IMG/VR virus record: IMGVR_UViG_3300021142_000006 | Strand: one strand, 5' to 3' | Length of the DNA: 64,000 nt | DNA from: a virus | Lineage: Duplodnaviria > Heunggongvirae > Uroviricota > Caudoviricetes | Shown here: positions 14,683 through 47,820 of the stretch, piece by piece | How the letters are laid out: each line of letters begins with the position of its first letter | How positions within the stretch are numbered: the stretch's first letter is position 1 | The notes under the pieces: model-generated | Databases searched by the model: none | What the model was told of the DNA's origin: nothing | Seen by the model: the letters and a program-made list of their open reading frames with translations, nothing else | Translations under genes and position numbers: made by a program

Positions 14683-14755
14683 TGGAGCGTATGGGAGTCG
14701 AACCCATGACTCGACCTTGCAAGGGTCGTGTTATCGCCTTCTTAACCAACACCCC
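14683..14755 (-). tRNA. tRNA-Ala(UGC)
   Basis: GGGGUGU/ACGCUCC acceptor with G3.U70, loop CUUGCAA, UUCGA T-loop; CCA not encoded. Confidence 0.92.
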
Positions 14756-14763
14756 ATATTTTG

Positions 14764-14834
14764 TAGCGCATAACGGTTACGATCCGTCTTTTTGGCAGTG
14801 AAAGTGCCACGTTCTACCATTGAACTAATGCGCC
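14764..14834 (-). tRNA. tRNA-Glu(UUC), atypical T-loop
   Basis: GGCGCAU/AUGCGCU; UGGCA-CUUUCAC-UGCCA; T-loop AUCGUAA. Confidence 0.8.
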
Positions 14835-14841
14835 ATTTTAG

Positions 14842-14913
14842 TATCGATGAAGGGAATCGAACCCTCGTTTACAGATCGAAAATCTGTCGTGCTAACCGTT
14901 GCACCACACCGAC
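14842..14913 (-). tRNA. tRNA-Glu(UUC)
   Basis: GUCGGUG/CAUCGAU; ACAGA-UUUUCGA-UCUGU. Confidence 0.85.
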
Positions 14914-15126
14914 ATTATTAACATTCACATATACATGTAATTGTATAACATTCATAACATCTGTAACCATCTTTGATATTGGAAATTATAAAGTCGTTGG
15001 CATATTTATCAATCGGTAAATCTCTTTTGATTTTTTCATCAATAACTTTTTTTTCCTCATCACTTAGTTTTCTATAATCTTTTCTTTTTTTCATTTTATA
15101 GTATAAAAAGCTTCAAAAGTTCCAGG

Positions 15127-15213
15127 CGGAGAGTTGCATAATCGAAATGCACCCAAATTAATGAGCCGCTCACTTAGCAGGTGGCGACAGCGACCCTGGC
15201 TGTTTAACTCTCC
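15127..15213 (-). tRNA. tRNA-Ser(GCU)
   Basis: GGAGAGU/ACUCUCC, G73, loop CUGCUAA, long variable arm; bulged anticodon stem. Confidence 0.82.
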
Positions 15214-15221
15214 ATTTATTT

Positions 15222-15455
15222 TTACATAATCCAACGCTGCAAATACTTTGATTCCATTTCAACAAAGAAATCTGCATCGCCCATATCCTCAACTGGTATT
15301 TCAAATCTTACATCAAATGATTCGAAAGTACCATCATCAAAATGCTTATTAACATATGTGTAATAATACGCATTACCTTTCCTGATATAATCAAGTTGAG
15401 CTTTCGGATTTTGCTTATACAAAGCTTTTTTTATTTCATTCTTTTCCATAATCAT
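15222..15455 (-). CDS. hypothetical protein inside tRNA array 1
   Basis: 77-aa ORF between tRNA-Trp and tRNA-Ser. Confidence 0.6.
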   Translation of the reverse strand: MIMEKNEIKKALYKQNPKAQLDYIRKGNAYYYTYVNKHFDDGTFESFDVRFEIPVEDMGDADFFVEMESKYLQRWIM

Positions 15456-15466
15456 ATTTTTATTTG

Positions 15467-15537
15467 CACGAACAATAGGATTCGAACCTATATCTGCGGT
15501 TTTGGAGACCGATATTCTACCATTGAACTATGCTCGT
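15467..15537 (-). tRNA. tRNA-Trp(CCA)
   Basis: ACGAGCA/UGUUCGU, G73, loop CUCCAAA. Confidence 0.9.
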
Positions 15538-15674
15538 ATTTTAATTTTATTAAAGTATTGTACAATTTATCTTTAGATAAAACTTGTTTGATCTTGGATT
15601 TTTTCTTGTTCCAATCAACCAATCTAAGGATTTTTCATCCAAAATAATTTTGTTTTTCATACTTTAAAATTTAG

Positions 15675-15761
15675 CGGTAGATGAAGGAATCGAACCCTTA
15701 CCAGCTCATCACCGATAGTCACGCTTTTCAAGAGCGTTTGCTTCCATAAGCACCATCTACC
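15675..15761 (-). tRNA. tRNA-Ser(UGA)
   Basis: GGUAGAU/AUCUACC, G73, loop CUUGAAA, long variable arm. Confidence 0.9.
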
Positions 15762-15798
15762 TTATTAAAACAATATTTCAAAGAACTTCCTTTTTTTG

Positions 15799-15902
15799 TA
15801 AGTTGAAATGGACTTGAACCATTATCTCAAACCACCAGGGTTCTCAACCACCTTACATTATTTTCAAGTCATGACTCAATACTCATAATGTATAATCAAC
15901 TT
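15799..15902 (-). ncRNA. tRNA-like element with intact acceptor, D and T arms but an aberrant 104-nt body
   Basis: AAGUUGA/UCAACUU acceptor, AUAC/GUAU D stem, AAUGG-UUCAAGU-CCAUU T arm; no canonical anticodon stem. Confidence 0.6.
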
Positions 15903-15907
15903 ATTTG

Positions 15908-15982
15908 TCAGGGGTGCAGAATTCGAATCTGCGTTTCATGCTCCCAAAGCACGAGTAATTGACCTGGCTATACTAACCCCTG
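15908..15982 (-). tRNA. tRNA-Pro(UGG)
   Basis: CAGGGGU/ACCCCUG, loop UUUGGGA. Confidence 0.9.
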
Positions 15983-16040
15983 GTTTCTAATTCTATGCAA
16001 AGTAACGGACTTTCTATGAATTAGTAACAGTCTTCAACTG

Positions 16041-16125
16041 TGAGAGTGGTCAGATTCGAACTGACAAAACCGTTAAGTTCCTGTTTTACAGACAGGTGCC
16101 GACTAACCGTATCGACAACACTCCC
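16041..16125 (-). tRNA. tRNA-Tyr(GUA)
   Basis: GGGAGUG/CACUCUC, loop CUGUAAA, long variable arm. Confidence 0.92.
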
Positions 16126-16126
16126 A

Positions 16127-16160
16127 AAACAAAAAACCCTGAGATTTTATTCTCAGGGTT
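16127..16160 (-). terminator. attenuator terminator of tRNA array 1
   Basis: AACCCUGAGA/UCUCAGGGUU 10-bp stem plus U-tract about 10 nt before tRNA-Tyr. Confidence 0.88.
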
Positions 16161-16181
16161 CTTATTATCTTTTTCTTTTTT

Positions 16182-16322
16182 TTATCCTCTATCGTCAGTA
16201 TCTTTTGTTGACTTTATAGGAAAATAAAAGTAATAAGAACCCCTTCCGCTCTCATACGCTGATGACGGTTCATAACTCGGTGCCCATGATGCGGCTACTA
16301 CTGTTAATCTTGAGTTTCTCAT
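16182..16322 (-). CDS. leader peptide 1 (46 aa, MRNSRLTVVAASWAPSYEPSSAYESGRGSYYFYFPIKSTKDTDDRG)
   Basis: hand-translated; A-rich initiation region; contains the antiterminator strand 16231..16242. Confidence 0.82.
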   Translation of the reverse strand: MRNSRLTVVAASWAPSYEPSSAYESGRGSYYFYFPIKSTKDTDDRG

Positions 16323-16428
16323 TTTCTTTTAATTTTTTATAGTTTTTTTAAAAATAACCAGGATAATGTTTTTTTCTTACCAATAGAAGTTTTTAACTGC
16401 TGGAATTATCCTCTTGTTATATATAGTA

Positions 16429-16459
16429 CAAAAGTAGTAAAAATTTTTGAAAAAACAAA
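16429..16459 (-). promoter_or_regulatory. Bacteroidetes-type sigma-A promoter for leader/array 1
   Basis: TTTG-N19-TACTTTTG on the minus strand. Confidence 0.78.
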
Positions 16460-16486
16460 TGTTTTCTAATTTTTTTTTCAGATTTT

Positions 16487-16972
16487 TTATTTTTTCATAT
16501 ATTTTTTACAATGATACAATAATAATGGGTTTATATCAGGTATTTTTTTCAAAAAGTTATATTCATATTGATAACATAAGGATTCCTCTGTTTCCACAGG
16601 TAATGTTATACACATATAACGTAATCTTAAATGGTAAGATTCATGTACCAAAGCTGCGGCAACATCATTAACATCATGAGATTTCATATCATATGACGAT
16701 AGTGTTATTATACCTTTATTTGTACAAGTTCCAAAATTGGTGGAATATTTTTGATTCCAGAATGTTATCTTATCACAATATTCAAATAGATTTTTATATG
16801 AATCTTCATCAGTTTTTTCAATAAGTTCTATTGCTTTAATAACATCATAATCCCAATAATCACCAGCTTTGTCAATAACCATTTGGCCACTAACATTGAT
16901 AATACCAATAAATATAAAATATAATAATATAATAACTTTTTTCATCATATATAAATAGCCACCTCTATACAT
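16487..16972 (-). CDS. hypothetical protein with HExxH motif (putative zinc metallopeptidase)
   Basis: signal-like N-terminus; AALVHESYH...EESLCY. Confidence 0.55.
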   Translation of the reverse strand: MYRGGYLYMMKKVIILLYFIFIGIINVSGQMVIDKAGDYWDYDVIKAIELIEKTDEDSYKNLFEYCDKITFWNQKYSTNFGTCTNKGIITLSSYDMKSHDVNDVAAALVHESYHLRLRYMCITLPVETEESLCYQYEYNFLKKIPDINPLLLYHCKKYMKK

Positions 16973-17046
16973 AAAAAAATTAAAAAAGTAAATAGTTCTT
17001 TTTGAAAAACTTTTCTATTTATTTATAACAACAACAATATTCTCAT

Positions 17047-18960
17047 ATGAAAAAAATTTTAATGTCTTTACTGTTAGTTTTATTTACAGTAACATCCTAT
17101 TCTCAGGTAGTAGGTTTATCTCCAGCGCCGTCTTCAGGCATTTGGGTATTGGTGGATACGTCATATACTGTAGGTACCAATACAATGGGTTTTACCAAGG
17201 CAAGATTGAGTTTTGCCAACACAACTGGTACAAAAATTACAGGTATGCAGTTCCGTGTTTATTATGACAAGGTTGCATTCAACGGAATGAAACCAACTGT
17301 AACATCATTGTTCAGTTCATCAAACTACATGCAATATGTATCGGATTCGGTAAATGGTAACATTACGATAACAATAGCGTTCACTGGTAGTAGTCCAACA
17401 TTTACCTATCCAGCCGATTCTGTTGGTTTCGAAATAACCCTTTATCATTCTCCAGCTGCAACGTTTCAGTATTTAACCTCAATAGATAGTATGAGGGTTA
17501 CTGGTTCTTTATCATTCCAAGCTTCTGCTTCAACAGTGTATGGTAATGATACAACTTTAAATCTTTATTCTTATGGTGGTTCTTTTTACAGACCACATCT
17601 TGCATATCATGGTAGATTTGCAAATGTTACAGGTTCTGCTACCAAAAATTTAACATTAGCTCTTGAAAAGAGACCAAGAGGTTCTTCAGGCACATGGACT
17701 CCAGTTGGTGTTTATGTAACTGATACTGCTGGTAAATTTTCATTTAACGAAATTGTAGATACAACTTATTGGGATACGCATTTATATGTAAAAGGTGATT
17801 CTATGAATGTTGGTGCAACAGTTTCTGTTGCTGATGCTCAAAAAGTTAACCAATTTATTCTTGGTCAAGCAACACCTTCTGGTTTTGACTATTATACTTC
17901 TGACGTAAATGGTTCTTATACAATCTCTATTGCTGACGTTTATTCAATTTACGGTAGACTTGCAGGTAGATTTACAGCATGGCCTAATAACGTTCAAGAT
18001 GTTAAATTCTTCACAACTACTGAATATTCAACAATTAATGGTTCAACAACCAATTATACGTCTACAATTCAAGGTGTAACAAATTTAACATTCCCAATCG
18101 TTCCAGGATCAGTTGATTCTGTAACATATTATGTTCTTGGTATGGGTGATGCAAATGGTACTGGTTTTCACATGGCTCGTGTAACGCCTATCCAAATTAT
18201 CAATCCTAATAATGCATATCATTATATTATTGATGAAACTGTGGATTATGATTTCCCAACTGATAAAGTTGAGGTTAATTTACCTGAATTAACTGTTGAT
18301 GAAGGTAATCTTGTTTCAGTACCAGTTGATGTTAAAATACCTTCTGGACAAATTGGTTCTTTGCAAGTAGCATTCACTTATGATTCAACATTGCTACAAT
18401 TCAAAGGTATGGAAACAGAACAAAAATTCAATAATTGGATGTCAATTTTGAATCCAAATTCTGGTACTGTCGAATGGATTGGTTCTGACATGACAGCTAA
18501 CCAATTTTCAGCAAATGATGGTGATAAACTTTTCAGTCTTGATTTCTTGGCATTAAAACCACAAGACCAATGGGGTAAGAGCCCATTATATGTAACCAGA
18601 AAATTTTCTGGTAATCAAAATGCTACAGATCTTTCTATAAACCCAACAAATGGTATGGTTGCTGTTATGAGATTAGCACCCAATAACAATAAAATTGATA
18701 AAAATTGCGCAATAACAGTTACACCAAACCCAACATCAGGTCTTGTGTTTGTAACATTTTCAATACCACAAGATTGCACAGCAAATGTGGATTTTTATGA
18801 TTTGAGTGGTAATAAAGTTTACACAGTTTATCAAGGAACAATTTATAAAGGAAGTTATAAATATATGGCTGATTTATCATATTTAACACCTGGAACTTAT
18901 TATGGTGTGTTAAAAACCAGTACTAATGATATAACTTCAACAAAAACATTGAAACAATAA
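17047..18960 (+). CDS. secreted protein with cohesin-like domains, dockerin/EF-hand-like motif and T9SS C-terminal sorting domain
   Basis: signal peptide; DVNGSYTISIADV; VSVPVDV..GSLQVAFTYDSTLLQF; C-terminal VTPNPTSG...FYDLSGNKV...LTPGTYY. Confidence 0.75.
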   Translation: MKKILMSLLLVLFTVTSYSQVVGLSPAPSSGIWVLVDTSYTVGTNTMGFTKARLSFANTTGTKITGMQFRVYYDKVAFNGMKPTVTSLFSSSNYMQYVSDSVNGNITITIAFTGSSPTFTYPADSVGFEITLYHSPAATFQYLTSIDSMRVTGSLSFQASASTVYGNDTTLNLYSYGGSFYRPHLAYHGRFANVTGSATKNLTLALEKRPRGSSGTWTPVGVYVTDTAGKFSFNEIVDTTYWDTHLYVKGDSMNVGATVSVADAQKVNQFILGQATPSGFDYYTSDVNGSYTISIADVYSIYGRLAGRFTAWPNNVQDVKFFTTTEYSTINGSTTNYTSTIQGVTNLTFPIVPGSVDSVTYYVLGMGDANGTGFHMARVTPIQIINPNNAYHYIIDETVDYDFPTDKVEVNLPELTVDEGNLVSVPVDVKIPSGQIGSLQVAFTYDSTLLQFKGMETEQKFNNWMSILNPNSGTVEWIGSDMTANQFSANDGDKLFSLDFLALKPQDQWGKSPLYVTRKFSGNQNATDLSINPTNGMVAVMRLAPNNNKIDKNCAITVTPNPTSGLVFVTFSIPQDCTANVDFYDLSGNKVYTVYQGTIYKGSYKYMADLSYLTPGTYYGVLKTSTNDITSTKTLKQ

Positions 18961-18984
18961 AACACAAATTAAAAAAAACAAAAA

Positions 18985-19341
18985 ATGGCAGAAGAAACAA
19001 AAGCCCCAGAAACGACAACCGCTGAAGGTGGTTGGTCAGGTTTAAAGAAAACATTAATCGGTACACTTACAACAGCTATTGCTGGTGGTGGAGTATGGTT
19101 AAGTACACTATTAAGTGGTGGTCATAAAGAAGCACCGAAGGAAGAACACAAAACAGAAACTGCTGCGCCTGCACCAGCACCAGCTGCTGCACCAGTTGTG
19201 ATTAATCTTTCTAATAATAACACAAACCAACAAAAACAATCTGCTTCTGGTGGTAATTCTAACGCAACAGCAACCGCTGCAAAACCAAAAGAAGAACCGA
19301 AAAAAGAAGAAAAAAAGAAAGAAACAGATTCTCCTTGGTAG
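18985..19341 (+). CDS. hypothetical membrane-anchored protein
   Basis: single hydrophobic segment, Ala/Pro linker. Confidence 0.65.
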   Translation: MAEETKAPETTTAEGGWSGLKKTLIGTLTTAIAGGGVWLSTLLSGGHKEAPKEEHKTETAAPAPAPAAAPVVINLSNNNTNQQKQSASGGNSNATATAAKPKEEPKKEEKKKETDSPW

Positions 19342-19371
19342 GATAAAAAAAAACATATGTTAAACTGAATA

Positions 19372-19728
19372 ATGAAAATGGGTTTAAAAGATTTAATAAA
19401 TACCAGCAGTGACTACACTGAGGTAGATGATAAAAATAGGTTCAATTACCTTTTACAAACAATGATGTCAAATCGTTGGAAAATAACACTTATTGTACTT
19501 TGTACATTCTTCTTTATCGTTTTTGGTATTGTGATGGCTGTGCTATTCAAAGCAACAATAGCTGAAGCATGGAAAGAATTGTTATTGATTCTTTTAGGTG
19601 CATTCGTTGGTAATTTGAACAAAGTAATCGATTTCTATTTCTCTTCTGAAGATAGAGATAAAATGCTTATTCAAAAAATGGATGAGGAAGACGGTGAATC
19701 ATTATCAAATATGGCCGCTGAAAAATAA
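19372..19728 (+). CDS. two-TM membrane protein
   Basis: two hydrophobic segments; GAFVGNLNKVIDFYF. Confidence 0.65.
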   Translation: MKMGLKDLINTSSDYTEVDDKNRFNYLLQTMMSNRWKITLIVLCTFFFIVFGIVMAVLFKATIAEAWKELLLILLGAFVGNLNKVIDFYFSSEDRDKMLIQKMDEEDGESLSNMAAEK

Positions 19729-19750
19729 ATTTAAAATTAAAACATATTTT

Positions 19751-20032: not shown

Positions 20033-20097
20033 TTATAAATAATTGATTGTGTTTGGATAAAATCTGAGCACAATCAATTTTAAATCAAATTAATATA

Positions 20098-35287: not shown

Positions 35288-35734
35288 AGGAGCTATTCGG
35301 AATCGAACCGAAGTCTTTTTAGTCATCGTTTGAAAATCATTCACAAGTTTATCTTAGTTTTCTAACCAAGAGAAATATCAAGATCCATTTACCCAGGACT
35401 ACTTGCGTGAGGATAATAATTTTTAGACTCTGTATTAAAGAGTTCTGATTTATTGCCCAGTAACGACCCAAACCAGAAAAGACCGAACCCATTATTATTT
35501 TACACCCATGAGTTAAGGGATTAAGCAGGTTTTTTCCCTGTTGTTAGCTTACGCTAATTCAAGATCTGCAATCTCAACAGCCTGACCGTCAAACACAATG
35601 TTTCCGTCAGCATCAATATAGCTTGCGCCGATATTGTCATTTAGTTTTCACATAGAGTATTTAAAGTGCTTCCAATGTTAACACTACTTGCATCAATTCA
35701 AAGAACATCCTAAAAATCAAAGCCAGGTAGCCCC
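35288..35734 (-). ncRNA. ssrA: tmRNA
   Basis: GGGGCUA/UAGCUCC acceptor with G3.U, T arm UUCGG-UUCGAUU-CCGAA, internal reading frame 35549..35641 (NDNIGAS...ADLELA*). Confidence 0.85.
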
Positions 35735-35800
35735 ATGATTTATAATTATTTACAAAAATAATAAAAGTTTTTCAAACTTCCAAATTTATTTAAATAATTG

Positions 35801-35886
35801 TGCGACTGAAGGGAGTCGAACCCTCACGAACCTTACGGCTCATTGGTTTTTAAGACCAACCTGGTTACCAGTTACAGCACAGTCGC
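35801..35886 (-). tRNA. tRNA-Leu(UAA)
   Basis: GCGACUG/CAGUCGC, loop CUUAAAA, long variable arm. Confidence 0.92.
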
Positions 35887-35890
35887 ATTT

Positions 35891-35918
35891 TGCATGTCTA
35901 CCATTCCATCACCGAGGC
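35891..35918 (-). pseudogene. 5' fragment of another tRNA-Leu
   Basis: GCCUCGGUGAUGGAAUGGUAGACAUGCA = acceptor 5' strand plus Leu-type D arm, cut off before the anticodon. Confidence 0.7.
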
Positions 35919-35928
35919 ATTTATGTTA

Positions 35929-35959
35929 CAAAAGTAATAAACTTTTTTGAAAAAACAAA
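35929..35959 (-). promoter_or_regulatory. Bacteroidetes-type promoter inside array 2
   Basis: TTTG-N19-TACTTTTG. Confidence 0.7.
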
Positions 35960-35963
35960 AAAT

Positions 35964-36167
35964 TTAAGGTTTATTTTGTTCATTGAAAAATTTTATCCAG
36001 ATTTTAAAAAAAGCATGTGCTTTTCGTTTCATATCTAATTCATTTTTTGCTGAAAAATACGAATTGATTTCAGGCAAATAACAAGAAATCAAGCCATCTT
36101 TATTAGATGTATATTTGATTTCAAATGGTATATCTGTTGTTATAGATTTTTCATATTTGTTTACCAT
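35964..36167 (-). CDS. hypothetical protein inside array 2
   Basis: 67-aa ORF. Confidence 0.5.
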   Translation of the reverse strand: MVNKYEKSITTDIPFEIKYTSNKDGLISCYLPEINSYFSAKNELDMKRKAHAFFKIWIKFFNEQNKP

Positions 36168-36177
36168 AAAAAATTTT

Positions 36178-36252
36178 TGGTTGCTCCACCCAGAATCGAA
36201 CTGGATTTTCTTGAGTATCAGTCAAGCGTTATAACCATTCTACTATGGAGCA
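36178..36252 (-). tRNA. tRNA-Ile(GAU)
   Basis: UGCUCCA/UGGAGCA, loop CUGAUAC, CCA encoded. Confidence 0.9.
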
Positions 36253-36261
36253 ATATTTGTG

Positions 36262-36333
36262 TAGTTACGTCAAGATTCGAACTTGAATTAACAGGGTCAA
36301 AACCTGTTGTGCTAACCGTTGCACCACGTAACT
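36262..36333 (-). tRNA. tRNA-Gln(UUG)
   Basis: AGUUACG/CGUAACU, loop UUUUGAC. Confidence 0.88.
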
Positions 36334-36355
36334 ATCTAAGACTATAATTCCCTTG

Positions 36356-36429
36356 TAGTCCAAGAGGGATTCGAACCCTCACTGTATAGTTTCTAAAACT
36401 ATTGCCTCTCCCATTTGGGCTACTGAACC
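36356..36429 (-). tRNA. tRNA-Leu(UAG), short variable loop
   Basis: AUAGU-UUUAGAA-ACUAU. Confidence 0.82.
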
Positions 36430-36435
36430 ATTATG

Positions 36436-36517
36436 TGACTCTGGTCGGACTCGAACCGACACGTCCTAAAACACTGGCTTCTTAGACCAGCCTGGCTACC
36501 AATTACAGCACAGAGCC
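36436..36517 (-). tRNA. tRNA-Leu(AAG)
   Basis: CUGGU-CUAAGAA-GCCAG, long variable arm, Leu-type D arm. Confidence 0.87.
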
Positions 36518-36526
36518 ATTATATTG

Positions 36527-36600
36527 TGACTATGGAAAGATTCGAACTTTCAACCCCTCCGTCCGTAGCGGAGTGCGCTAATCCGTTGCGCCACATAGCC
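36527..36600 (-). tRNA. tRNA-Arg(ACG)
   Basis: GGCUAUG/CAUAGUC, loop CUACGGA. Confidence 0.92.
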
Positions 36601-36602
36601 GT

Positions 36603-36640
36603 AAAATAAAAAACCCCAGATCGCTTTGCGTACTGGGGCT
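36603..36640 (-). terminator. attenuator terminator of tRNA array 2
   Basis: GCCCCAG/CUGGGGU stem plus U-tract about 10 nt before tRNA-Arg. Confidence 0.85.
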
Positions 36641-36668
36641 TAAGTTTTCCTTTCTTAATTCTTCTATG

Positions 36669-36758
36669 TTATGAAAAAGTTTTAACAATAGATGCCCCAT
36701 CTCTTAAAATTAAGAGTTGTAACTGTTGTAGGCGAATAATGTTATTAACGTTTTTCAT
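36669..36758 (-). CDS. leader peptide 2 (29 aa, MKNVNNIIRLQQLQLLILRDGASIVKTFS)
   Basis: hand-translated; contains UGGGGC, complementary to the terminator 5' arm. Confidence 0.82.
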   Translation of the reverse strand: MKNVNNIIRLQQLQLLILRDGASIVKTFS

Positions 36759-36971
36759 TTTAAAATATTTTATGCTTTTATATAAATATGTTCTTTTTTT
36801 AAAAAAAATCGGAATAATGTTTTTTTCTTATTTAGCAAGGTTTAAATGCTGAAATTATTCCCTTTATAAAATACGGATTGCTTTTTTTTGACGTTTTAAA
36901 TTGGAAGTTTAAATTGGAAGTTTAAATTGATAAAAATTTGCTGTAGGCAATCCCATTATTTCAATATAGTA

Positions 36972-37003
36972 CAAAAGTAATAAACAATTTTTAAAAAAAC
37001 AAG
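36972..37003 (-). promoter_or_regulatory. Bacteroidetes-type promoter for leader/array 2
   Basis: CTTG-N20-TACTTTTG. Confidence 0.7.
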
Positions 37004-42424: not shown

Positions 42425-42495
42425 TGCGCCATGAAGGTACTGACCCTTCTTCCACGAGTTAAAAGCTCGTTACTTCACCTTAAAGCTTATAGCGC
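42425..42495 (-). tRNA. tRNA-Lys(UUU), atypical T-loop
   Basis: ACGAG-CUUUUAA-CUCGU; T-loop GUCAGUA. Confidence 0.83.
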
Positions 42496-42503
42496 ATTAT
42501 TAG

Positions 42504-42543
42504 TGACCCCACAGGGACTCGAACCTTGATCCACAGCTTAGAA
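42504..42543 (-). pseudogene. 3' half of a disrupted tRNA-Arg(UCU)
   Basis: UUCUAAGCUGUGGAUCAAGGUUCGAGUCCCUGUGGGGUCA; its acceptor strand pairs with the 5' fragment at 43034..43054. Confidence 0.8.
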
Positions 42544-42583
42544 CTTTTACTTCTAATCCATATATTTATAAATAAAGAAATAT

Positions 42584-42958
42584 ATGAAAGAAAAATTATG
42601 TTCAAGATGTAAACAACCAAAACAAGAGTCTGACTTTTATCATAGAAAAAGTAGAAAAAATAGTGCATTTGGTATGTGTAAAGTATGTTTTAACTCTTAT
42701 TGTGTTCAACGATGGATTGAACGCAAAATAGACGCTATACATTACAAAGGTGACAAATGCGTAGATTGTTCTACTTCTTATCCAGAATATCCATATGTTA
42801 TCTTTGATTTTCACCATTTAGATCCAAATAAAAAAGATATGGATTGGACTAAATTAAGATTACAATCTTGGGATAAAATAACGGATGAACTTGATAAATG
42901 TGTTTTACTTTGTTCTAACTGTCATCGTATACGGCACCATAACGAAATAAAATTTTAG
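42584..42958 (+). mobile_element. HNH endonuclease gene inserted in tRNA-Arg
   Basis: CSRCK..C..C finger; CVDC..FDFHHLDP..CVLLCSNCHRIRH; antisense to the array. Confidence 0.88.
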
Positions 42959-43029
42959 TGCTCCCAAGAGGATTCGAACCTCTATGAAGACTTTAGAAGA
43001 GTCTCGTCCTTCCATTGAACGATGGGAGC
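42959..43029 (-). tRNA. tRNA-Arg(UCU), intact
   Basis: GCUCCCA/UGGGAGC; AGACU-CUUCUAA-AGUCU. Confidence 0.9.
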
Positions 43030-43033
43030 ATAA

Positions 43034-43054
43034 TATCCATTGAGCTATGGAGCC
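43034..43054 (-). pseudogene. 5' fragment of the disrupted tRNA-Arg
   Basis: GGCUCCAUAGCUCAAUGGAUA. Confidence 0.75.
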
Positions 43055-43106
43055 ATTTGTTTTACAAAGATAAGTAATTATTTTTTACTTACCAAATTTA
43101 TTTTTA

Positions 43107-43202
43107 AAAATTACCTCCAGTTAGATCAATGATACGTTCATGTCTACATTGCCTTAATTATTCCGTTAGACAAACGTGTACGGAAGCTGGTTTAGCAATT
43201 TT
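43107..43202 (-). ncRNA. candidate three-way-junction RNA with kissing loops
   Basis: CCAG/CUGG, UUCCGU/ACGGAA and CAAUG/CAUUG stems; the two loops are complementary. Confidence 0.65.
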
Positions 43203-43207
43203 TTTTG

Positions 43208-43279
43208 TACCCCCTGAGAATTTCGAAATCCCAACCTCTTGGATGTAAGCCAAGCGCTCCGCCTTTGAGCTAAAGGGGT
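43208..43279 (-). tRNA. tRNA-Val(UAC)
   Basis: ACCCCUU/AGGGGGU; loop CUUACAU. Confidence 0.87.
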
Positions 43280-43302
43280 ATATATTTGAGATAAACAAAT
43301 TG

Positions 43303-43374
43303 TACCGATGTGGGATCTCGAAACCCAAACCTATCCCATATGAGGGGATCGCTCTTCCTTTGAGCTACATCGGC
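43303..43374 (-). tRNA. tRNA-CAU (elongator Met or Ile2)
   Basis: GCCGAUG/CAUCGGU; AUCCC-CUCAUAU-GGGAU. Confidence 0.82.
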
Positions 43375-43377
43375 ATT

Positions 43378-43640
43378 TGCTGGTATAGCCGCCCATCACC
43401 AGCGTTGTGCTTGCTTTTATAAAGCACTTTATCCGATTCTCCCCTAAGCCCTCAGACGATGCGACATTTCAACGATTAATTACTTCGTTTACTATAAGAG
43501 TTACAGATTTCTCTGTCGTTTTTAATAAGGTTAGGAATAGAGGCTGTTTGGTGCGCATTAGGGGTGTCTCTTCAAACTGTATAACTCAGTCAACCAAACC
43601 TTAGACACTTCATCTATCAACGCTTTTATGCATATTCCTA
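43378..43640 (-). ncRNA. candidate multiply pseudoknotted ncRNA (~260 nt)
   Basis: at least seven complementary segment pairs, several crossing; GC higher than the genome background. Confidence 0.62.
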
Positions 43641-43715
43641 TGGAGCGGTAGAGAGGAATCGAACCTCCGTCTCCTACTTGGAAGGAAGGAGTAATAGCCA
43701 CTATACGACTACCGC
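43641..43715 (-). tRNA. tRNA-Gly(UCC)
   Basis: GCGGUAG/CUACCGC, U73, CCA encoded. Confidence 0.92.
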
Positions 43716-43723
43716 AAATTTAA

Positions 43724-43924
43724 TTAAGCATATGAATCATTATCTTTTTCATCAAAACCGCTTTCCCATGAATGTATTAATTTATTTAAATCATCATAAA
43801 TTTTTATGAGTCCTTTTTTAATTTTTTTAGCGAAACCATGTGCTTCGTGTTTATAATTAAATTCGGATTCTCTATGAGTCAATACACCTTTTTCCCAGGT
43901 ACTTACTTTTACTTTGTGTGACAT
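43724..43924 (-). CDS. hypothetical protein
   Basis: 66-aa ORF. Confidence 0.55.
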   Translation of the reverse strand: MSHKVKVSTWEKGVLTHRESEFNYKHEAHGFAKKIKKGLIKIYDDLNKLIHSWESGFDEKDNDSYA

Positions 43925-43932
43925 ATTCTTTT

Positions 43933-44988
43933 TTATTTAAAATATTCTAACCAAATATCTTTGGTCTTATTAGTATAAATAGTTAGTTCTTTTTGATTCT
44001 TTGTAACATTCAAATTTGGTGATTGATGTGTTAGTAATAAAGCCGCATATATTTCTTCAGTTTGTGTTGCTTTTGCTACAAACCAACTATCAATCCATGG
44101 TATTTCTTTAGATCCAACAAGAGGTACGCCTTGACTTATAATATCAGCACCAACTATGTTAAACGTTTCAGTTATTGAAACTTGCATACCAATATCCATT
44201 TGTGCACAAATATTTGAAAAATCTTCTCTATCTTGCCACCCATGGTTTATTAATTGATGTCCTTTATCAGATAATTGTGAAAAAAATCCAATAAGATTTC
44301 TCATAACAGGTTCACCTTTTTGTTCAACCCTACCACCGTTAACATGGAACCTCAATTTTTTATTGATTGAGTCTGCAAACTTAACAGCAGCGATTGCTTG
44401 CATTATATGATTTTTTAAAGGTCTAACTGCACCAAAACAACCTATATCAATTATATCTTTATCATTTGCTGTATAAGTTTTTGTCTTATAATCTTGTGGA
44501 TAAAAATTTGGTAAATATATAATTCTATTATCCTTTTCAAAATCATCCCAATTCATTTTATACCCAAGATAAAATTTTATCTCATTTAAAGTTCTTGGTG
44601 AATTAACAGCAATTAAAACATTAGGATATGAAATATAATCACCTAACCAATCCATAGCCATTCCCTCGTTTGCAAGAAATGGAATTTCACTATGTAATCT
44701 AATTATCCATTTAACACTTGGATGTAAGTTACAAAGAACTGAGAACTTTGTTGGTACAACCCATAACGCTTCAATAATAACGTGTGTTGGTTTGAACTCA
44801 GTAACTTCTTTATCAATACCATTATTATCAATCACAACAACAATTTTTGTTTCAACCCCACAATCCAAAAGCATTTGATACATGAAGGATGCTGAATTAT
44901 ATAGACCTGTTGTTAATCCAATTTTAGAATCTTTAACTGGATTAAAATCCTCTTTTCTTTTTAAAATAAAAAGCACTCTACATGACAT
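43933..44988 (-). CDS. GT-B (GT4-like) glycosyltransferase
   Basis: GCFGAVRPLKNH...QVSITETFNIVGAD..GVPLV; true start is probably MSCRVL because the longer ORF overlaps tRNA-Gly. Confidence 0.75.
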   Translation of the reverse strand: MSCRVLFILKRKEDFNPVKDSKIGLTTGLYNSASFMYQMLLDCGVETKIVVVIDNNGIDKEVTEFKPTHVIIEALWVVPTKFSVLCNLHPSVKWIIRLHSEIPFLANEGMAMDWLGDYISYPNVLIAVNSPRTLNEIKFYLGYKMNWDDFEKDNRIIYLPNFYPQDYKTKTYTANDKDIIDIGCFGAVRPLKNHIMQAIAAVKFADSINKKLRFHVNGGRVEQKGEPVMRNLIGFFSQLSDKGHQLINHGWQDREDFSNICAQMDIGMQVSITETFNIVGADIISQGVPLVGSKEIPWIDSWFVAKATQTEEIYAALLLTHQSPNLNVTKNQKELTIYTNKTKDIWLEYFK

Positions 44989-45002
44989 ATTATTTATTGT
45001 TT

Positions 45003-45077
45003 TGGAGCAGTAAGGCAGAATCGAACTGCCGTCCTCGCCTTGGCAAGGCGATGTAATAGCCACTATACGACTACTGC
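45003..45077 (-). tRNA. tRNA-Gly(GCC)
   Basis: GCAGUAG/UUACUGC, U73, CCA encoded. Confidence 0.92.
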
Positions 45078-45080
45078 AAT

Positions 45081-45333
45081 TGAGGCGATGCTTCGGTACG
45101 CCTCGGTTCCCTATTCACCCATTTACAGTGACCCCAGTTACCTCTGCTTTTTTATTCTTTTGCTACTAATCAGTTACCAGCTGACCAAGAATTTCAGAAT
45201 CTGTAGATTCAACTCCTTACGAAGAACGCCATGGGTAGCGTTTTTTTTAGTTAAAAACATCTTAACCCAATGTTGTGAGGCTTTCGCCAGGGGAATCCCA
45301 CCATCCATTCGTTTTTTAAAAGGGAATGGAACC
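45081..45333 (-). ncRNA. candidate multi-hairpin ncRNA (~250 nt)
   Basis: GGUUCC/GGAACC closing stem, GGC-GAAA-GCC, GAAUCU/AGAUUC, UCAG/CUGA, terminal GAGGCG/CGCCUC. Confidence 0.55.
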
Positions 45334-45338
45334 TTTTG

Positions 45339-45461
45339 TCATCCTGGATGGATTCGAACCACCGACACACAGTTCTACATATAAAATTTTCACTGCGGAA
45401 CACATTCTCATCAGAATGCTCTTTTTTTTTACCGTTGCTCTACCAACTGAGCTACAGGATG
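45339..45461 (-). ncRNA. tRNA scaffold (Phe-like body) with 57 nt in place of the anticodon loop
   Basis: CAUCCUG/CAGGAUG, GCUC/GAGC, ACGGU/ACUGU, GGUGG-UUCGAAU-CCAUC all intact. Confidence 0.75.
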
Positions 45462-45672
45462 AAATTCCCCCATCTTGAGATTATGGATGAGTAGTTATTT
45501 CGGTTTTCTATTTCTACAAAACCTGCGAGGCATCCCTCATTAAAAGTGCCAACACTACTGGGAAGATTTGTGTGTCATCTTTAACCCCAAGCCGTCCCAC
45601 TCACGCTGACTGACGGTCTGCGAAATCATTTTTAATCTTGATTCAAAGACTCTGAGTATCTCTAACTCATTG

Positions 45673-45793
45673 CGGCGAGATCAGGATTCGAACCTGAACC
45701 TTTTTCTTAATAGGAAATTGTTAGATAGTTAATTTGCAGCATTCATCCACACTGGATGATTCTTTTTTAATGCTGCCGTTACACCATCTCGCC
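45673..45793 (-). ncRNA. tRNA scaffold with the anticodon arm replaced by an insert
   Basis: GGCGAGA/UCUCGCC, D arm and UCAGG-UUCGAAU-CCUGA intact; insert carries the A-tract/hairpin/CUGCAAA module. Confidence 0.72.
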
Positions 45794-45852
45794 TTGTTAT
45801 ACAATAGTAATAAACATTGTTAATAAAAGCAAATTATTATTGTAATTTTTTT

Positions 45853-45927
45853 TGGAGGACACACTCAGAACCGACCTGAGAACTCATGCTTACAAGGCAA
45901 GTATTTTTCCAGCTAAACTATGCGTCC
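45853..45927 (-). tRNA. tRNA-Thr(UGU), atypical T-loop
   Basis: loop CUUGUAA; T-loop GUCGGUU; CCA encoded. Confidence 0.83.
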
Positions 45928-46061
45928 ATTACAACTTTTAAATTATCCCCAGAGTTGTGAACTGTGCTGGCATACGATCCAGAAGTTTAGTGGCTTGTTC
46001 TCGGATGATTAATCCGATATTAGACTTTCTTATCTTCGATCCCTTGGCCTTTGGGCTTTTG

Positions 46062-46134
46062 TAGCGAACCCAGGTAATGCTCCTGGTATCTCCAGGTTAT
46101 GAGCCTGGCGAGATAACTTTTTCTCTAATTCGCA
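46062..46134 (-). tRNA. tRNA-Met(CAU), initiator-like, atypical T-loop
   Basis: U1.U72 mismatch; CCAGG-CUCAUAA-CCUGG; T-loop GAGCAUU. Confidence 0.75.
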
Positions 46135-46246
46135 ATGTTTAAAAAGGTTAGTAGTTGTCTTAGAGTTACGGAGTCTGTAATTAACATATGACCGTTTCGA
46201 CCACGTTCTCGGATCAGGAGTTTTGTGCGTAACATACTACTATTTG

Positions 46247-46319
46247 TAGCGAGAGAAGGACTCGAACCTTCGACCTCACAGGTTATGAGCCTGGCGAGCT
46301 ACCGCTGCTCTATCTCGCA
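46247..46319 (-). tRNA. tRNA-Met(CAU), initiator-like
   Basis: U1.U72 mismatch; loop CUCAUAA; UAGAGCAGCGGUAGCUC D arm. Confidence 0.85.
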
Positions 46320-46411
46320 ATATAATATCTTAATAAAGTTAAATATGCACGTTAAAGATGTAAAGTATATTATGCAAAAATAGGTTTATTGAGGTGTTTT
46401 GCATATTATAA

Positions 46412-46531
46412 TTATCTTTTTCGTCTTTGTCTTAGAGCCGAACCAGCAAGTGTTTTTGTTGTTTTACTCGTTGATTTACTCTTTAACGCTTTGCTTGCTT
46501 TTTTTGCAACACGTTTGGATGTTCTTGCCAT
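46412..46531 (-). CDS. 39-aa highly basic peptide (not in the ORF track)
   Basis: MARTSKRVAKKASKALKSKSTSKTTKTLAGSALRQRRKR, hand-translated. Confidence 0.62.
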   Translation of the reverse strand: MARTSKRVAKKASKALKSKSTSKTTKTLAGSALRQRRKR

Positions 46532-46545
46532 AATATATTTTTTTG

Positions 46546-46666
46546 AGCTGACGGATAGAATCGAACCACCGACTCTGGCTTGGAATGCATATAACTGTTA
46601 ATTGCGGTATGGAATCTCATCAGATTCACTTGTTTTAACAGCGTGTTACCATTACACTACATCAGC
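46546..46666 (-). ncRNA. tRNA-Gly(UCC)-like scaffold with a ~50-nt anticodon insert
   Basis: GCUGAUG/CGUCAGC, U73; residual UUCCAA-GCCAG 3' anticodon half; insert hairpin GAAUCU-GAUG-AGAUUC. Confidence 0.75.
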
Positions 46667-46758
46667 ATTGAAATTCATAGGTTGTCAACCCACCGTGTTT
46701 TTTGTCCATCATACTATTGACGAGATAGTACTTCTCATATTTACAGGGTTATGAATTT

Positions 46759-46835
46759 TGGCGGAGATGAAGGGATTCGAACCCTCGACCTTCAGCGTGA
46801 CAAGCTGACATTGTAACCAACTCTACTACACCTCC
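46759..46835 (-). tRNA. tRNA-Asp(GUC)
   Basis: GGAGGUG/CAUCUCC, G73, CCA encoded. Confidence 0.92.
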
Positions 46836-46905
46836 GTATTAAAATTAAAGGGTTAAAAGGTTCTGCTTTCAACAAGGTGCGCTTAACTTACTTCCTTTAA
46901 TTTTG

Positions 46906-46978
46906 CTCTTCCAGCAGGATTCGAACCTGCGACCAACAGATTAACAGTCTGCTGCGCTACCAGCTGCGCTATGGAAGA
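46906..46978 (-). tRNA. tRNA-Asn(GUU)
   Basis: UCUUCCA/UGGAAGA, loop CUGUUAA. Confidence 0.93.
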
Positions 46979-46987
46979 ATTTTTAAG

Positions 46988-47061
46988 TGTACCCTACAGG
47001 GTTCGAACCTGTGACCCCAACATTATGAGTGTTATGCTCTAACCAGCTGAGCTAAGGGTAC
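46988..47061 (-). tRNA. tRNA-CAU, probably Ile2 (lysidine type)
   Basis: GUACCCU/AGGGUAC; Ile-like body UAGCUCAGCUGGUUAGAGC; loop CUCAUAA. Confidence 0.8.
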
Positions 47062-47213
47062 ATAATAACGTATTTGCTATGATAGGTTATGTTATTCCGT
47101 TTAATTTGGTAATAACCGAATAATTAAATATTTTATTCCCTTTGTCACCTGTTACCATCAGATAAGGCTGTTTTCAAATATACACACCTATCAAAGCAAA
47201 TTTCTTTATAAAG

Positions 47214-47286
47214 TGGTACCGACTGGAATCGAACCAGGGACACCGAAATTTTCAGTTTCGTGCTCTACCAACTGAGCTACGGCACC
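47214..47286 (-). tRNA. tRNA-Phe(GAA)
   Basis: GGUGCCG/CGGUACC; loop CUGAAAA. Confidence 0.93.
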
Positions 47287-47366
47287 AAATTCGGAATGGG
47301 GTTTTAGCTTGAATCATTAAAAGTGAATTGCTTAAAAATTTGCTGGAACCATTCCCATTTGTTTTA

Positions 47367-47398
47367 CAAAAGTATGAAGTTATTTTCAAACTTCCAAA
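47367..47398 (-). promoter_or_regulatory. Bacteroidetes-type promoter inside array 3
   Basis: TTTG-N20-TACTTTTG. Confidence 0.68.
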
Positions 47399-47521
47399 CT
47401 TTTTTTTATTTTTTTTTGTTTATCCCAATATGTCAAAGAACATTAATTATAAGACCCCTTCGAGTGTTTTAAGACTTATTTAGCCAGACCTAAGTCCTAT
47501 ACTTATCTCTTATAATATTTG

Positions 47522-47595
47522 TGTGACAGGTCGGTTTCGATCCGACTACCCCTTCGCTCACAACGAAGCGCTCTCCCAATTGAGCTACAGTCACC
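47522..47595 (-). tRNA. tRNA-His(GUG)
   Basis: encoded G-1; CUUCG-UUGUGAG-CGAAG; T-loop AUCGAAA; A73. Confidence 0.83.
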
Positions 47596-47612
47596 ATGTT
47601 AAAGAACTACAT

Positions 47613-47643
47613 AAAAAAACCCCAGCTTTTTGTGCTGGGGTTT
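47613..47643 (-). terminator. attenuator terminator of tRNA array 3
   Basis: AAACCCCAGC/GCUGGGGUUU stem plus U-tract about 17 nt before tRNA-His. Confidence 0.88.
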
Positions 47644-47667
47644 CTCATTTATAACTTTTACTTTCTA

Positions 47668-47751
47668 TTAGTAATCGCATAAGAAACCCCTGTCAGTGTG
47701 ATCATTCACTCTGCCAAACGTCATTCCTATATTTTTTATTTGCGATTTCAT
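47668..47751 (-). CDS. leader peptide 3 (27 aa, MKSQIKNIGMTFGRVNDHTDRGFLCDY)
   Basis: hand-translated; contains the antiterminator strand 47679..47690. Confidence 0.84.
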   Translation of the reverse strand: MKSQIKNIGMTFGRVNDHTDRGFLCDY

Positions 47752-47789
47752 CGAAAGCTTAAAATTTTATGTGTTAATAATAATTAGTA

Positions 47790-47820
47790 CAAAAGTAATA
47801 AAAGTTTTTCAAAAAACAAA
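47790..47820 (-). promoter_or_regulatory. Bacteroidetes-type promoter for leader/array 3
   Basis: TTTG-N19-TACTTTTG. Confidence 0.78.

Follow-up and report, generated by a model that had tools for sequence, protein, structure and literature searches.

Cassette architecture upstream of the tRNA arrays

What controls the three tRNA arrays on the minus strand of this large freshwater phage, and why does a transcription terminator stand immediately in front of each of them? We addressed these questions in a stretch of 64,000 nt, referred to as the window. ARAGORN and Rfam detected three minus-strand tRNA arrays, and in all three cassettes a promoter is followed by a short open reading frame (ORF), a hairpin with a U-tract and the first tRNA, which is the shared architecture described in an initial annotation of the sequence. 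Our results support the interpretation given there, that the cassettes are attenuators, and each computational test suggested in it had a favorable outcome. We consider it likely that the tRNA clusters are governed by ribosome-mediated (leader-peptide) transcription attenuators, and each tRNA set is probably boosted only when the ribosome experiences a shortage of those same tRNAs.

The three promoters are near-identical and match the Bacteroidota type (TTTG ... TAnnTTTG) in a pattern scan, and none of the three cassettes has a promoter between the terminator and the first tRNA. The leader ORFs start 29-204 nt past the promoters and have 46, 29 and 27 codons, in line with the proposed range of 27-46. 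Upstream of each ORF is an A/U-rich stretch, matching the expectation for the Bacteroidota, in which translation is usually initiated without a Shine-Dalgarno sequence. The cassettes also contain a family of 5' stem-loop elements (GGRWU..UYCAGCA..AWYCC), the stems of which have undergone many compensatory changes in the window and in related phages. The terminators are somewhat differently placed than proposed, since the suggested distance of 10-17 nt to the first tRNA is only approximate: the tRNA begins 5, 7 and 18 nt past the U-run and about 11-25 nt past the stem.

In the first cassette (all coordinates are on the minus strand), promoter 1 (16429..16459) is followed by a 5' stem-loop element (16359..16412), leader ORF 1 (16182..16322) and a terminator with a 13-bp stem (16131..16163, -18.5 kcal/mol) located 5 nt before tRNA-Tyr. 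Array 1 (14682..16125) encodes Tyr, Pro, Ser-UGA, Trp, Ser-GCU, Glu, Glu and Ala, with small ORFs interspersed, and the promoter pattern scan revealed no internal promoter. The divergent Ser-GCU gene (approximately 15213-15127) was missed by both ARAGORN and Rfam, and was recognized by its homology to a tRNA-Ser(GCT) in a relative and by its cloverleaf fold. In the second cassette, promoter 2 (36972..37003) precedes two tandem copies of the stem-loop element (36809..36954; copies at 36954-36873 and 36862-36809), leader ORF 2 (36669..36758) and terminator 2 (36608..36641, -17.7 kcal/mol), which ends 7 nt before tRNA-Arg(ACG). Array 2 (35800..36600) consists of Arg-ACG, Leu-AAG, Leu-UAG, Gln-UUG, Ile-GAU, a small ORF and Leu-UAA, the last of which has its own promoter at about 35959-35929.

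The third cassette is the most elaborate. Promoter 3 (47790..47820), leader ORF 3 (47668..47751) and terminator 3 (47613..47648, 5' arm at 47646-47634, -20.2 kcal/mol) are followed after 18 nt by tRNA-His, the first gene of array 3 (42425..47594), and then by an ungated promoter with a 5' element (47397-47291) that leads into Phe, CAU, Asn, Asp, CAU, CAU and Thr. Gly-GCC, two ORFs, Gly-UCC, CAU and Val are located behind a promoter at about 45833, and Arg-UCU and Lys-UUU behind another at about 43095. The array thus includes four CAU tRNAs and two for Gly; Lys-UUU was detected by Rfam only, and three tRNA-like genes with large insertions lie within the array. The internal promoters of arrays 2 and 3, all of the same class and matched near 35959, 43095, 45833 and 47397, had been anticipated, along with the caveat that they could bypass the terminators. 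This caveat is correct, and it is important for array 3, where tRNA-His alone separates the terminator from the next ungated promoter; leader 3 would directly gate this one tRNA and act on the rest of the array only via read-through.

Correspondence between leader codons and array content

The central observation is that each leader contains a run of codons restricted to amino acids served by the tRNAs of its own array. The run in leader 1 (16 codons, 16295..16248) contains only Ala, Ser, Trp, Pro, Tyr and Glu codons, that in leader 2 (13 codons, 36740..36702) only Ile, Arg, Leu and Gln codons, and that in leader 3 (19 codons, 47739..47683) only Ile, Lys, Asn, Gly, Met, Thr, Phe, Arg, Val, Asp and His codons. 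Strict wobble rules allow the arrays to decode 45/48 run codons in the leaders that precede them, and relaxed U34 rules raise this to 47/48 (15/16 and 16/16 for leader 1), which bears out the correspondence noted in the initial annotation. The tRNAs of the other arrays could decode just 0-1 codons in any one leader. Every anticodon in an array is sampled at least once by its own leader. The choice of isoacceptors also follows the array as had been stated, with Ile as AUU and Arg including CGC in leader 2 (Ile-GAU, Arg-ACG), and Ile as AUA and Arg as AGA/AGG in leader 3 (Ile2-CAU, Arg-UCU).

Our analysis confirmed that this three-cassette pattern is real and far beyond chance. When all six frames of the window were scanned, no run longer than the leader's own was found for set 1 or set 2 (16 codons versus 13 for the next, and 13 versus 9, respectively), and the leader run for set 3 ranked third in length. 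By a more lenient count, made before Ser-GCU was added, 43/48 codons were served, and no windows of equal length at the approximately 14,000 positions of the long open frames of the phage reached this number; the corresponding binomial probabilities per leader were 1e-7, 1e-9 and 5e-5.

Related phages provide a further comparison, as proposed in the initial annotation: codon content tracks array content while the peptides diverge, with exceptions in three relatives. Relatives with re-partitioned arrays carry matching leaders, for Lys/Ile/Val/His in one class and for Phe/Asn/Asp/Thr/Arg/Met/Gly/Glu in another. When Ile-GAU is part of array 2, as in the window and in L016, L019 and L021, there are three AUU codons in the leader run; when it has moved away, as in G001, L013, L025 and L026, the AUU codons are absent, a change that may reflect just one or two evolutionary events. 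Relatives have a separate array of Lys-CUU, Lys-UUU, Ile-UAU, Val, His and Ile-GAU with its own leader, the run of which consists of Val, Ile, Lys and His codons only and includes both AUU and AUA and both AAG and AAA. In L029, an array with Glu and Gln and lacking Lys, Val and His is preceded by a run that likewise contains Glu and Gln codons and none for Lys, Val or His (17/17 codons served), and in L013 and L025 a Leu-CAA gene is accompanied by a UUG codon in the run. The exceptions are G001, in which leader 1 retains two Ala codons and tRNA-Ala was not found, and L014 and L022, which retain Gln (and Ile) codons for tRNAs that ARAGORN and Rfam did not detect in the array.

Terminators, alternative structures and a proposed mechanism

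On neither strand of the window is there a terminator-like hairpin stronger than the three leader terminators (-17.7 to -20.2 kcal/mol, 6-7 U). For each of them, a segment within the ORF is complementary to the 5' arm, as had been suggested, and the pairing is maintained by compensatory changes. In leader 1, this strand (16226..16243) pairs with 16156-16173, overlapping the 5' arm, and the duplex of -17.7 kcal/mol was equalled by 0/300 codon-shuffled ORFs. In leader 3, the strand (47690-47679) pairs with 47648-47637, and its duplex of -19.8 kcal/mol was likewise equalled by 0/300 shuffles. More broadly, duplexes of -13 to -20 kcal/mol were equalled by 0-3/300 codon-shuffled ORFs in the leader 1, 3, 3b and Lys/Ile/Val/His families. 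The antiterminator of leader 2 is weaker: UGGGGC (36699-36694), located next to a conserved small hairpin within the ORF (36716-36701), pairs with GCCCCA in the 5' arm (36639-36634), and with its core of only 6 bp this antiterminator does not outperform 7-28% of the codon-shuffled ORFs. Within the leader 2 family, 93.8% of the cells pair and 2/6 pairs have changed on both sides, a score reached by 1/500 shuffles.

To fold the alternatives, as the initial annotation had recommended, we modeled co-transcriptional folding of transcripts ending just before the 3' arm of the terminator, with the position of the ribosome varied. In the model, the 5' arm is sequestered with a probability of 0.45-0.95 when there is no ribosome or when the A site is in the run, and this drops to 0.0-0.3 once the ribosome covers the G-rich segment. 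The same attenuator logic was obtained for 14 cassettes of four leader classes. Terminator and antiterminator are thus predicted to be mutually exclusive and selected by the position of the ribosome, albeit more weakly in the leader 2 family. At equilibrium, the full-length leaders 2 and 3 fold into the terminator at any ribosome position, which implies that the switch must be kinetic; the trp attenuation switch is likewise kinetic. Given the assumed footprint, a ribosome stalled at the last few codons of the run would itself mask the antiterminator strand in all leaders, and the single His codon of leader 3 would be among these codons. Furthermore, ORF 1 extends 20 codons beyond its antiterminator strand, and the model predicts that a ribosome at the stop codon leaves this strand unmasked.

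We propose that, once the strong phage promoter has fired, a ribosome enters the short leader, in the middle of which it would encounter a roll-call of codons decoded by the tRNAs encoded downstream. If all sampled aminoacyl-tRNAs are plentiful, the ribosome would quickly reach the G-rich segment 3' of the run and cover it, so that it could not pair with the 5' arm; the terminator would then form and halt the RNA polymerase 5-18 nt short of the first tRNA. Scarcity of any one of the sampled tRNAs would instead stall the ribosome within the run, and the exposed G-rich segment could capture the nascent 5' arm, allowing the polymerase to read into the array. An untranslated leader is also predicted to give read-through. 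Such a system would constitute a negative feedback that maintains the ability to decode each codon set, and the loop would be direct because the presumed signal is the supply of the regulated gene products themselves.

The anatomy of the cassettes, the codon statistics, the alternative structures and the covariation of both pairing and leader/array content were computed directly, and from these we infer that the leaders are translated, that ribosome and polymerase are coupled and that shortage increases read-through. The natural trigger may be the loss or cleavage of host tRNAs, for example by anticodon nucleases, the demand imposed by phage codon usage, or a lack of charging, as under amino-acid starvation. 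Contigs from the lake metatranscriptome did not cover the leader regions.

Alternative explanations and relation to known systems

Could the same hardware respond to something other than the tRNAs of the array? The leader might report any slowing of ribosomes, whether from starvation, ribosome shortage or translation-targeting defence, so that general translation status or amino-acid charging is the signal and the codon match is secondary. The model does predict read-through whenever no ribosome reaches the G-rich segment, and a missing and an uncharged tRNA are indistinguishable to the ribosome, as established from the his and trp attenuators. A general sensor, however, would not have to cover all the anticodons of its own array while avoiding those of the others, nor would its codon set have to follow changes in the array, and we regard this explanation as rather unlikely. 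It is quite improbable that stalling acts by way of Rho or by altering transcript stability instead of via the intrinsic terminator; in that case the sign might be reversed, with uncoupling of the ribosome lowering tRNA levels. ORF 1 does reach well past the antiterminator strand, small ORFs occur inside the arrays and the 5' stem-loop elements hint at additional layers of control, but strong intrinsic terminators and covarying antiterminator strands explain the anatomy without Rho, and producing less tRNA during a tRNA shortage would be maladaptive.

Two other explanations dispense with sensing by a translating ribosome, and we find both of them very hard to believe. The ORFs could encode functional micropeptides, with the terminators as ordinary insulators and the resemblance to the arrays incidental or compositional. 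The leader 2 peptides are indeed fairly conserved among relatives, and public gene callers predict the leader 2 ORF as a gene in two metagenome records, an observation that also speaks for the attenuator reading. Yet the codon-anticodon match is found in all three cassettes and in relatives, the complementarity between ORF and terminator is kept by compensatory changes, and the peptides of different leader classes agree in their composition rules, not in sequence; a terminator directly behind a promoter and 5-18 nt before the first tRNA would also insulate nothing. As for direct sensing in the manner of a T-box, by pairing of codon-like triplets with free tRNA anticodons without a ribosome, the leader RNA does contain triplets complementary to the downstream anticodons. 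These triplets are, however, contiguous, in frame and bounded by AUG and stop, which translation alone requires, and no conserved platform similar to the T-box Stem I is apparent. No T-box covariance model matched: Rfam scans, one covering the whole window at gathering thresholds and others by E-value, gave only tRNA and tmRNA, and no other Rfam family was found at the leaders.

The ribosome-mediated attenuator that we favor resembles those of the amino-acid operons (trpL, hisL, leuL, pheL and the multivalent thrL and ilvGMEDA/ilvBN leaders) in having a short ORF near the promoter, in which regulatory codons are enriched, and a terminator whose 5' arm can pair with a segment in or beside the ORF, depending on ribosome position. 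As in the multivalent leaders, codons for several amino acids are mixed. It differs in that the system is phage-encoded, the presumed signal is tRNA supply and tRNAs are controlled instead of enzymes, and in that the runs, instead of reiterating a single codon, sample 4 to 11 amino acids, with each isoacceptor of the array represented mostly one to three times. Furthermore, 1:2 pairing in trp causes termination without translation, whereas our model predicts read-through. In E. coli, pheST is controlled by leader-peptide attenuation through pheM, which senses the decoding of Phe codons; this also concerns the translation apparatus, but the target is a synthetase and just one amino acid is involved, rather than tRNA genes or sets of them. 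T-box riboswitches (RF00230) similarly sense tRNA status through a terminator/antiterminator switch upstream of translation-related genes, but they bind uncharged tRNA directly, without a ribosome, by means of a single specifier codon together with the conserved T-box sequence, and their targets are synthetase, biosynthesis and transport genes rather than tRNA genes.

The novelty lies in the regulated genes: tRNA genes and a few small ORFs follow the terminators, outside the classical scope of attenuators, which is amino-acid biosynthesis and synthetase genes. Phage tRNAs replace cleaved or depleted host tRNAs, and the studies in question describe tRNA function and escape mutations but no regulatory cassette (PMC10264068, PMC11464382, PMC11555353); the words attenuation, leader, terminator and promoter are all absent from the text of PMC10264068. 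Our literature searches found no published account of leader-peptide attenuation controlling tRNA genes.

A cassette of the same design is present in phiCbK, an unrelated, cultured Caulobacter phage. Its ORF contains a run of Gln, Phe, Val and Ile codons, with both CAA and CAG and both GUG and GUC, and the run is followed by a copy of the 3' arm of the terminator, an annotated terminator and then Phe, Val, Ile, Ile, Val, Gln and Gln tRNAs.

Codon content of the leaders and their tRNA arrays

Three tRNA arrays on the minus strand of the window are preceded by cassettes with a common order of elements, consisting of a near-identical promoter, a short ORF, a hairpin with 6-7 U and the first tRNA, so that the shared architecture reported in the initial annotation was recovered in 3/3 cassettes. 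The leader ORFs are located at 16322..16182, 36758..36669 and 47751..47668 (all minus strand), and the first tRNA follows 5-18 nt after the end of the U-run. The three terminators take the top three ranks among terminator-like hairpins on both strands of the window in an energy-based scan, which was used in place of a simple terminator scan that missed terminator 2, because of an inner stem within its loop, and reported terminator 3 on the opposite strand only.

Each leader contains an uninterrupted run of codons for the amino acids served by the array behind it. The 16 codons of run 1 (Ala, Ser, Trp, Pro, Tyr and Glu) and the 13 codons of run 2 (Ile, Arg, Leu and Gln) specify exactly the amino acids of arrays 1 and 2, and the 19 codons of run 3 (Ile, Lys, Asn, Gly, Met, Thr, Phe, Arg, Val, Asp and His) those of array 3. 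In a six-frame scan, runs 1 and 2 were the longest in the window for their own amino-acid sets and run 3 was the third longest. The restriction of the codon run to amino acids of the downstream array, as claimed earlier, holds for 3/3 leaders and extends to the anticodons: tRNAs of the own array read 45/48 run codons under standard wobble rules, and 47/48 with relaxed U34, non-cognate arrays read 0-1 codons per leader, and every distinct anticodon of an array is sampled at least once in its leader. The count of 45 includes a divergent tRNA-Ser(GCU) at approximately 15213-15127 (minus strand) that was not detected by ARAGORN or Rfam. This gene has a bulged anticodon stem, folds into a cloverleaf, is homologous to a Ser-GCT gene in the relative G001 and reads AGU and AGC in leader 1. 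A CAU tRNA at 47061 presumably resembles the tRNA-Ile2 of E. coli; an alignment of the CAU tRNAs to the Ile-UAU tRNAs of relatives did not single out Ile2.

Could such a match have arisen by chance? The boundaries of the runs were set after inspection of the sequence, but this choice does not suffice to explain binomial P values as small as 1e-7, 1e-9 and 5e-5 for the three leaders. These were obtained with a lenient count of 43/48, from which Ser-GCU was left out, and this count was reached in 0 of about 14,000 windows taken from the long open frames of the phage. On these statistics, a chance origin of the codon match was rejected.

Related contigs provide a test of the relationship between leaders and arrays. 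In the window and in L016, L019 and L021, Ile-GAU is located inside array 2 and the run contains three AUU codons. In G001, L013, L025 and L026, Ile-GAU has moved out of array 2 and the run contains zero AUU codons. The tRNA there belongs to a distinct array (Lys-CUU, Lys-UUU, Ile-UAU, Val, His, Ile-GAU) with a promoter, leader and terminator all its own, and the run of this leader encodes only Val, Ile, Lys and His, with AUU and AUA as well as AAG and AAA codons. Likewise, the run of L013 and L025, which carry Leu-CAA, includes a UUG codon. A leader-3 homologue with His behind it was identified in L027, and a different leader in L028 and L029, the run of which contains Ile, Asn, Thr, Met, Asp, Arg, Phe, Gly and Glu, no Lys, Val or His, and in L029 additionally Gln. 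The array of L029 has exactly the content of its run, with 17/17 codons served. In these relatives, leader content tracks array content while the peptide sequence changes, and the covariation with diverging peptides that the initial annotation had proposed to look for is thereby borne out.

There are exceptions to this pattern. Leader 1 of G001 retains two Ala codons for which a tRNA-Ala was not found, and the leaders of L014 and L022 retain Gln (and Ile) codons with no Gln or Ile tRNAs behind them according to ARAGORN or Rfam. The leader-2 array of L014 comprises four tRNAs before it runs into part of a Cas12f/TnpB-like gene (2718-2918), and may be truncated. Beyond the fragment lie genes of bacterial type (a TonB-dependent receptor plug, an NMN transporter and a NadR-like gene), and either a rearrangement or chimeric assembly could account for the junction. 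It should also be considered that the Ile-GAU/AUU change may represent merely one or two evolutionary events; a tree of a neighbouring protein was weakly resolved, too poorly to count separate events.

Alternative folds of the leader transcripts

Each of the three runs is directly followed by a G-rich segment with complementarity to the terminator 5' arm. Leader 1 adopts the antiterminator even in its full-length minimum-energy fold. The full-length equilibrium fold of leaders 2 and 3 favours the terminator and displays no switch, which in these two leaders is seen in the co-transcriptional model only. The trp attenuator likewise favours the terminator at equilibrium, and its folds are selected kinetically. 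Since equilibrium favoured the terminator in leaders 2 and 3, we instead folded transcripts truncated immediately upstream of the 3' arm, with a 28-nt ribosome footprint that was made unpairable and stepped codon by codon along the ORF. In this model, the 5' arm is sequestered when no ribosome is present and at every position of the A site within the run, and is released when the footprint comes to lie over the G-rich segment. This change occurs where the run ends in 14/14 modelled cassettes from the window phage and seven relatives, in line with the earlier claim of alternative terminator and antiterminator folds.

The duplex between ORF and arm is unusually strong in the leader 1, 3, 3b and Lys/Ile/Val/His families, where only 0-3 of 300 codon-shuffled ORFs are as strong, and the paired segments are almost wholly different among relatives with the complementarity kept. 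In the leader 2 family, the duplex is not clearly above the codon shuffles, of which 22-83 of 300 equal it. The 6-bp pairing in this family occurs in the variants UGGGGC/GCCCCA, UGGGGU/ACCCCA and AGGGGC/GCCCCU, such that 93.8% of cells pair and two pairs are changed on both sides, and its covariation score was reached by 1 of 500 shuffles.

A further stem-loop element is located between the promoter and the ORF in cassettes 1 and 2, in one or two copies. Copies were identified at 16412-16359, 36954-36873, 36862-36809 and 47356-47291 (all minus strand), as well as in L010, L012-L014, L016, L019, L021, L022 and L027-L029. The element begins at or near the transcription start of tRNA promoters and consists of a 6-9 bp stem (GGGAWU.../...AWUCC) and an A-rich loop of 35-70 nt that opens with UYCAGCAA. 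The copies, 1-3 in tandem, differ by numerous compensatory changes in the stem, and the element is followed by a leader ORF or directly by a tRNA; no Rfam match was obtained for it. The loop of the first copy in cassette 2 contains a short direct repeat, CAATTTAAACTTC, in two copies and a partial third (36925-36890, minus strand).

Relation to known attenuators and to phage phiCbK

The hardware is the same as in classical leader-peptide attenuators, with the multivalent thr and ilv leaders and, among translation genes, the pheST leader as the nearest examples, and all testable structural features of this family were found. Unlike in the classical systems, the regulated genes are tRNAs, the run samples many isoacceptors rather than one repeated codon, and the putative feedback runs through the products of the operon itself. 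A T-box identity was ruled out, as there was no Rfam T-box match, and full-text literature searches revealed no account of tRNA genes under the control of a leader peptide.

Judging from its sequence, a cassette in the cultured Caulobacter phage phiCbK (JX100813) extends the attenuator design beyond the lineage of the window phage. Rho-independent terminators are annotated in GenBank directly upstream of three tRNA blocks in phiCbK (47000-53000), one of them preceded by the annotated 45-aa gp083. We examined one cassette (about 51330-51510), in which an unannotated ORF upstream of the Phe, Val, Ile, Ile, Val, Gln, Gln block contains the run Gln-Phe-Val-Arg-Gln-Ile-Gln-Val-Val-Arg-Asn-Ile, with CAA and CAG as well as GUG and GUC codons. 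Behind the run lies a sequence nearly identical to the terminator 3' arm, and the annotated terminator comes next.

Promoters of the same class that are not gated by a leader are present inside arrays 2 and 3, and could bypass the terminators, as the initial annotation had cautioned. In array 3 and in L027, tRNA-His stands alone between the terminator and the next promoter, and the equivalent array in G001, starting with Phe, has a promoter and no leader. The internal promoters imply that leader 3 can affect most of its list only via added read-through transcription.

On balance, the in silico data support the interpretation of the tRNA cassettes as leader attenuators, which we consider likely. 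We also lean, with less confidence, towards the broader hypothesis that codon-matched leader attenuators form a regulator class that is widespread among phages and has so far gone undescribed, occurring in phages as unrelated as a Bacteroidota jumbo phage and phiCbK. Such leaders would sense codon-specific decoding failure and provide demand-driven feedback on tRNA operons, and degradation of host tRNAs, or their cleavage by anticodon-nuclease defences, would bring substitute tRNAs into expression; anticodon nucleases and other triggers of the switch are speculation at this stage. The purpose of phage tRNAs has been debated for decades, with codon compensation, host tRNA replacement and escape from tRNA-cleaving defences as the candidates. 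If true, the hypothesis would provide direct genomic evidence that phage tRNAs relieve shortages in decoding and are kept at their level by feedback, and would extend attenuation from metabolic genes to the genes of translation adaptors, with up to 11 amino acids and 11 anticodons sensed by one leader. The leaders could serve as natural codon-specific sensors of translational stress in synthetic biology and as a sequence signature for the annotation of tRNA operons in phage genomes, and the phiCbK cassette makes the idea testable in a standard laboratory host.

The phage and its other RNA genes

The 64-kb window has a G+C content of about 30%, densely packed genes and the standard code. It contains 28-31 tRNA genes covering all 20 amino acids plus an amber-suppressor-like tRNA, and further encodes a tmRNA and a protein with a tRNA-binding domain. 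The tRNA set, the tmRNA, a type IX secretion sorting domain in one protein and tRNA promoters of the TTTG ... TAnnTTTG type fit a large phage infecting a Bacteroidota host. Its closest relatives are metagenomic contigs of 320-360 kb; a DNA similarity search of GenBank phages yielded isolated tRNA matches only and no relative. As search anchors, an 835-aa collagen-repeat protein retrieved unrelated loci only and a neighbouring RNaseH-like protein had no match in the viral collection.

Exact pieces of the window are present in low-depth contigs from three lake-water metatranscriptomes, whose cover lies outside the leaders. Cover at 47282-47500, upstream of an internal promoter, may stem from read-through or from carried-over DNA, and was not counted as evidence. 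The tmRNA (35734-35285, minus strand) has its own promoter at about 35783 and a terminator at about 35257, and matches Rfam RF00023 over its full length with 39.4 bits (below the 47-bit cut-off; E 2.8e-14). Exact contigs cover 35400-35721 at a depth of 40-96 in all three metatranscriptomes, and the tag reading frame is seemingly of unusual length (long). Two G+C-rich non-coding stretches between tRNAs, at 45354-45162 and 45784-45467, are also represented by exact contigs in the three metatranscriptomes, at depths of about 30 and 5, respectively. Neither matched an Rfam family at E<0.01, and they may be additional stable RNAs.

Within 26330-25828 (minus strand), a tRNA-Cys that lies behind a promoter without leader or terminator precedes, in this order, the gene for a 109-aa protein with a tRNA-binding domain (PF01588) and a tRNA with a CUA anticodon (amber suppressor type), a trio that is kept in G001, L013 and L025. 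Three tRNA-like genes, at 46666-46546, 45793-45672 and 45461-45339 (minus strand), have normal acceptor, D and T arms, and 30-50 nt that replace or interrupt the anticodon loop. In two of these genes, the inserted sequence contains a common small hairpin, with UGAUGA in its loop and compensatory changes in its stem, and similar genes were identified in L029 (11612-11703) and L028 (11842-11926). Isolated tRNA 3' halves, consisting of the T arm and the acceptor strand, are found on the minus strand just upstream of tRNA-Lys (42545-42497) and between tRNA-Pro and tRNA-Ser (15830-15790), and may be remnants or split genes.
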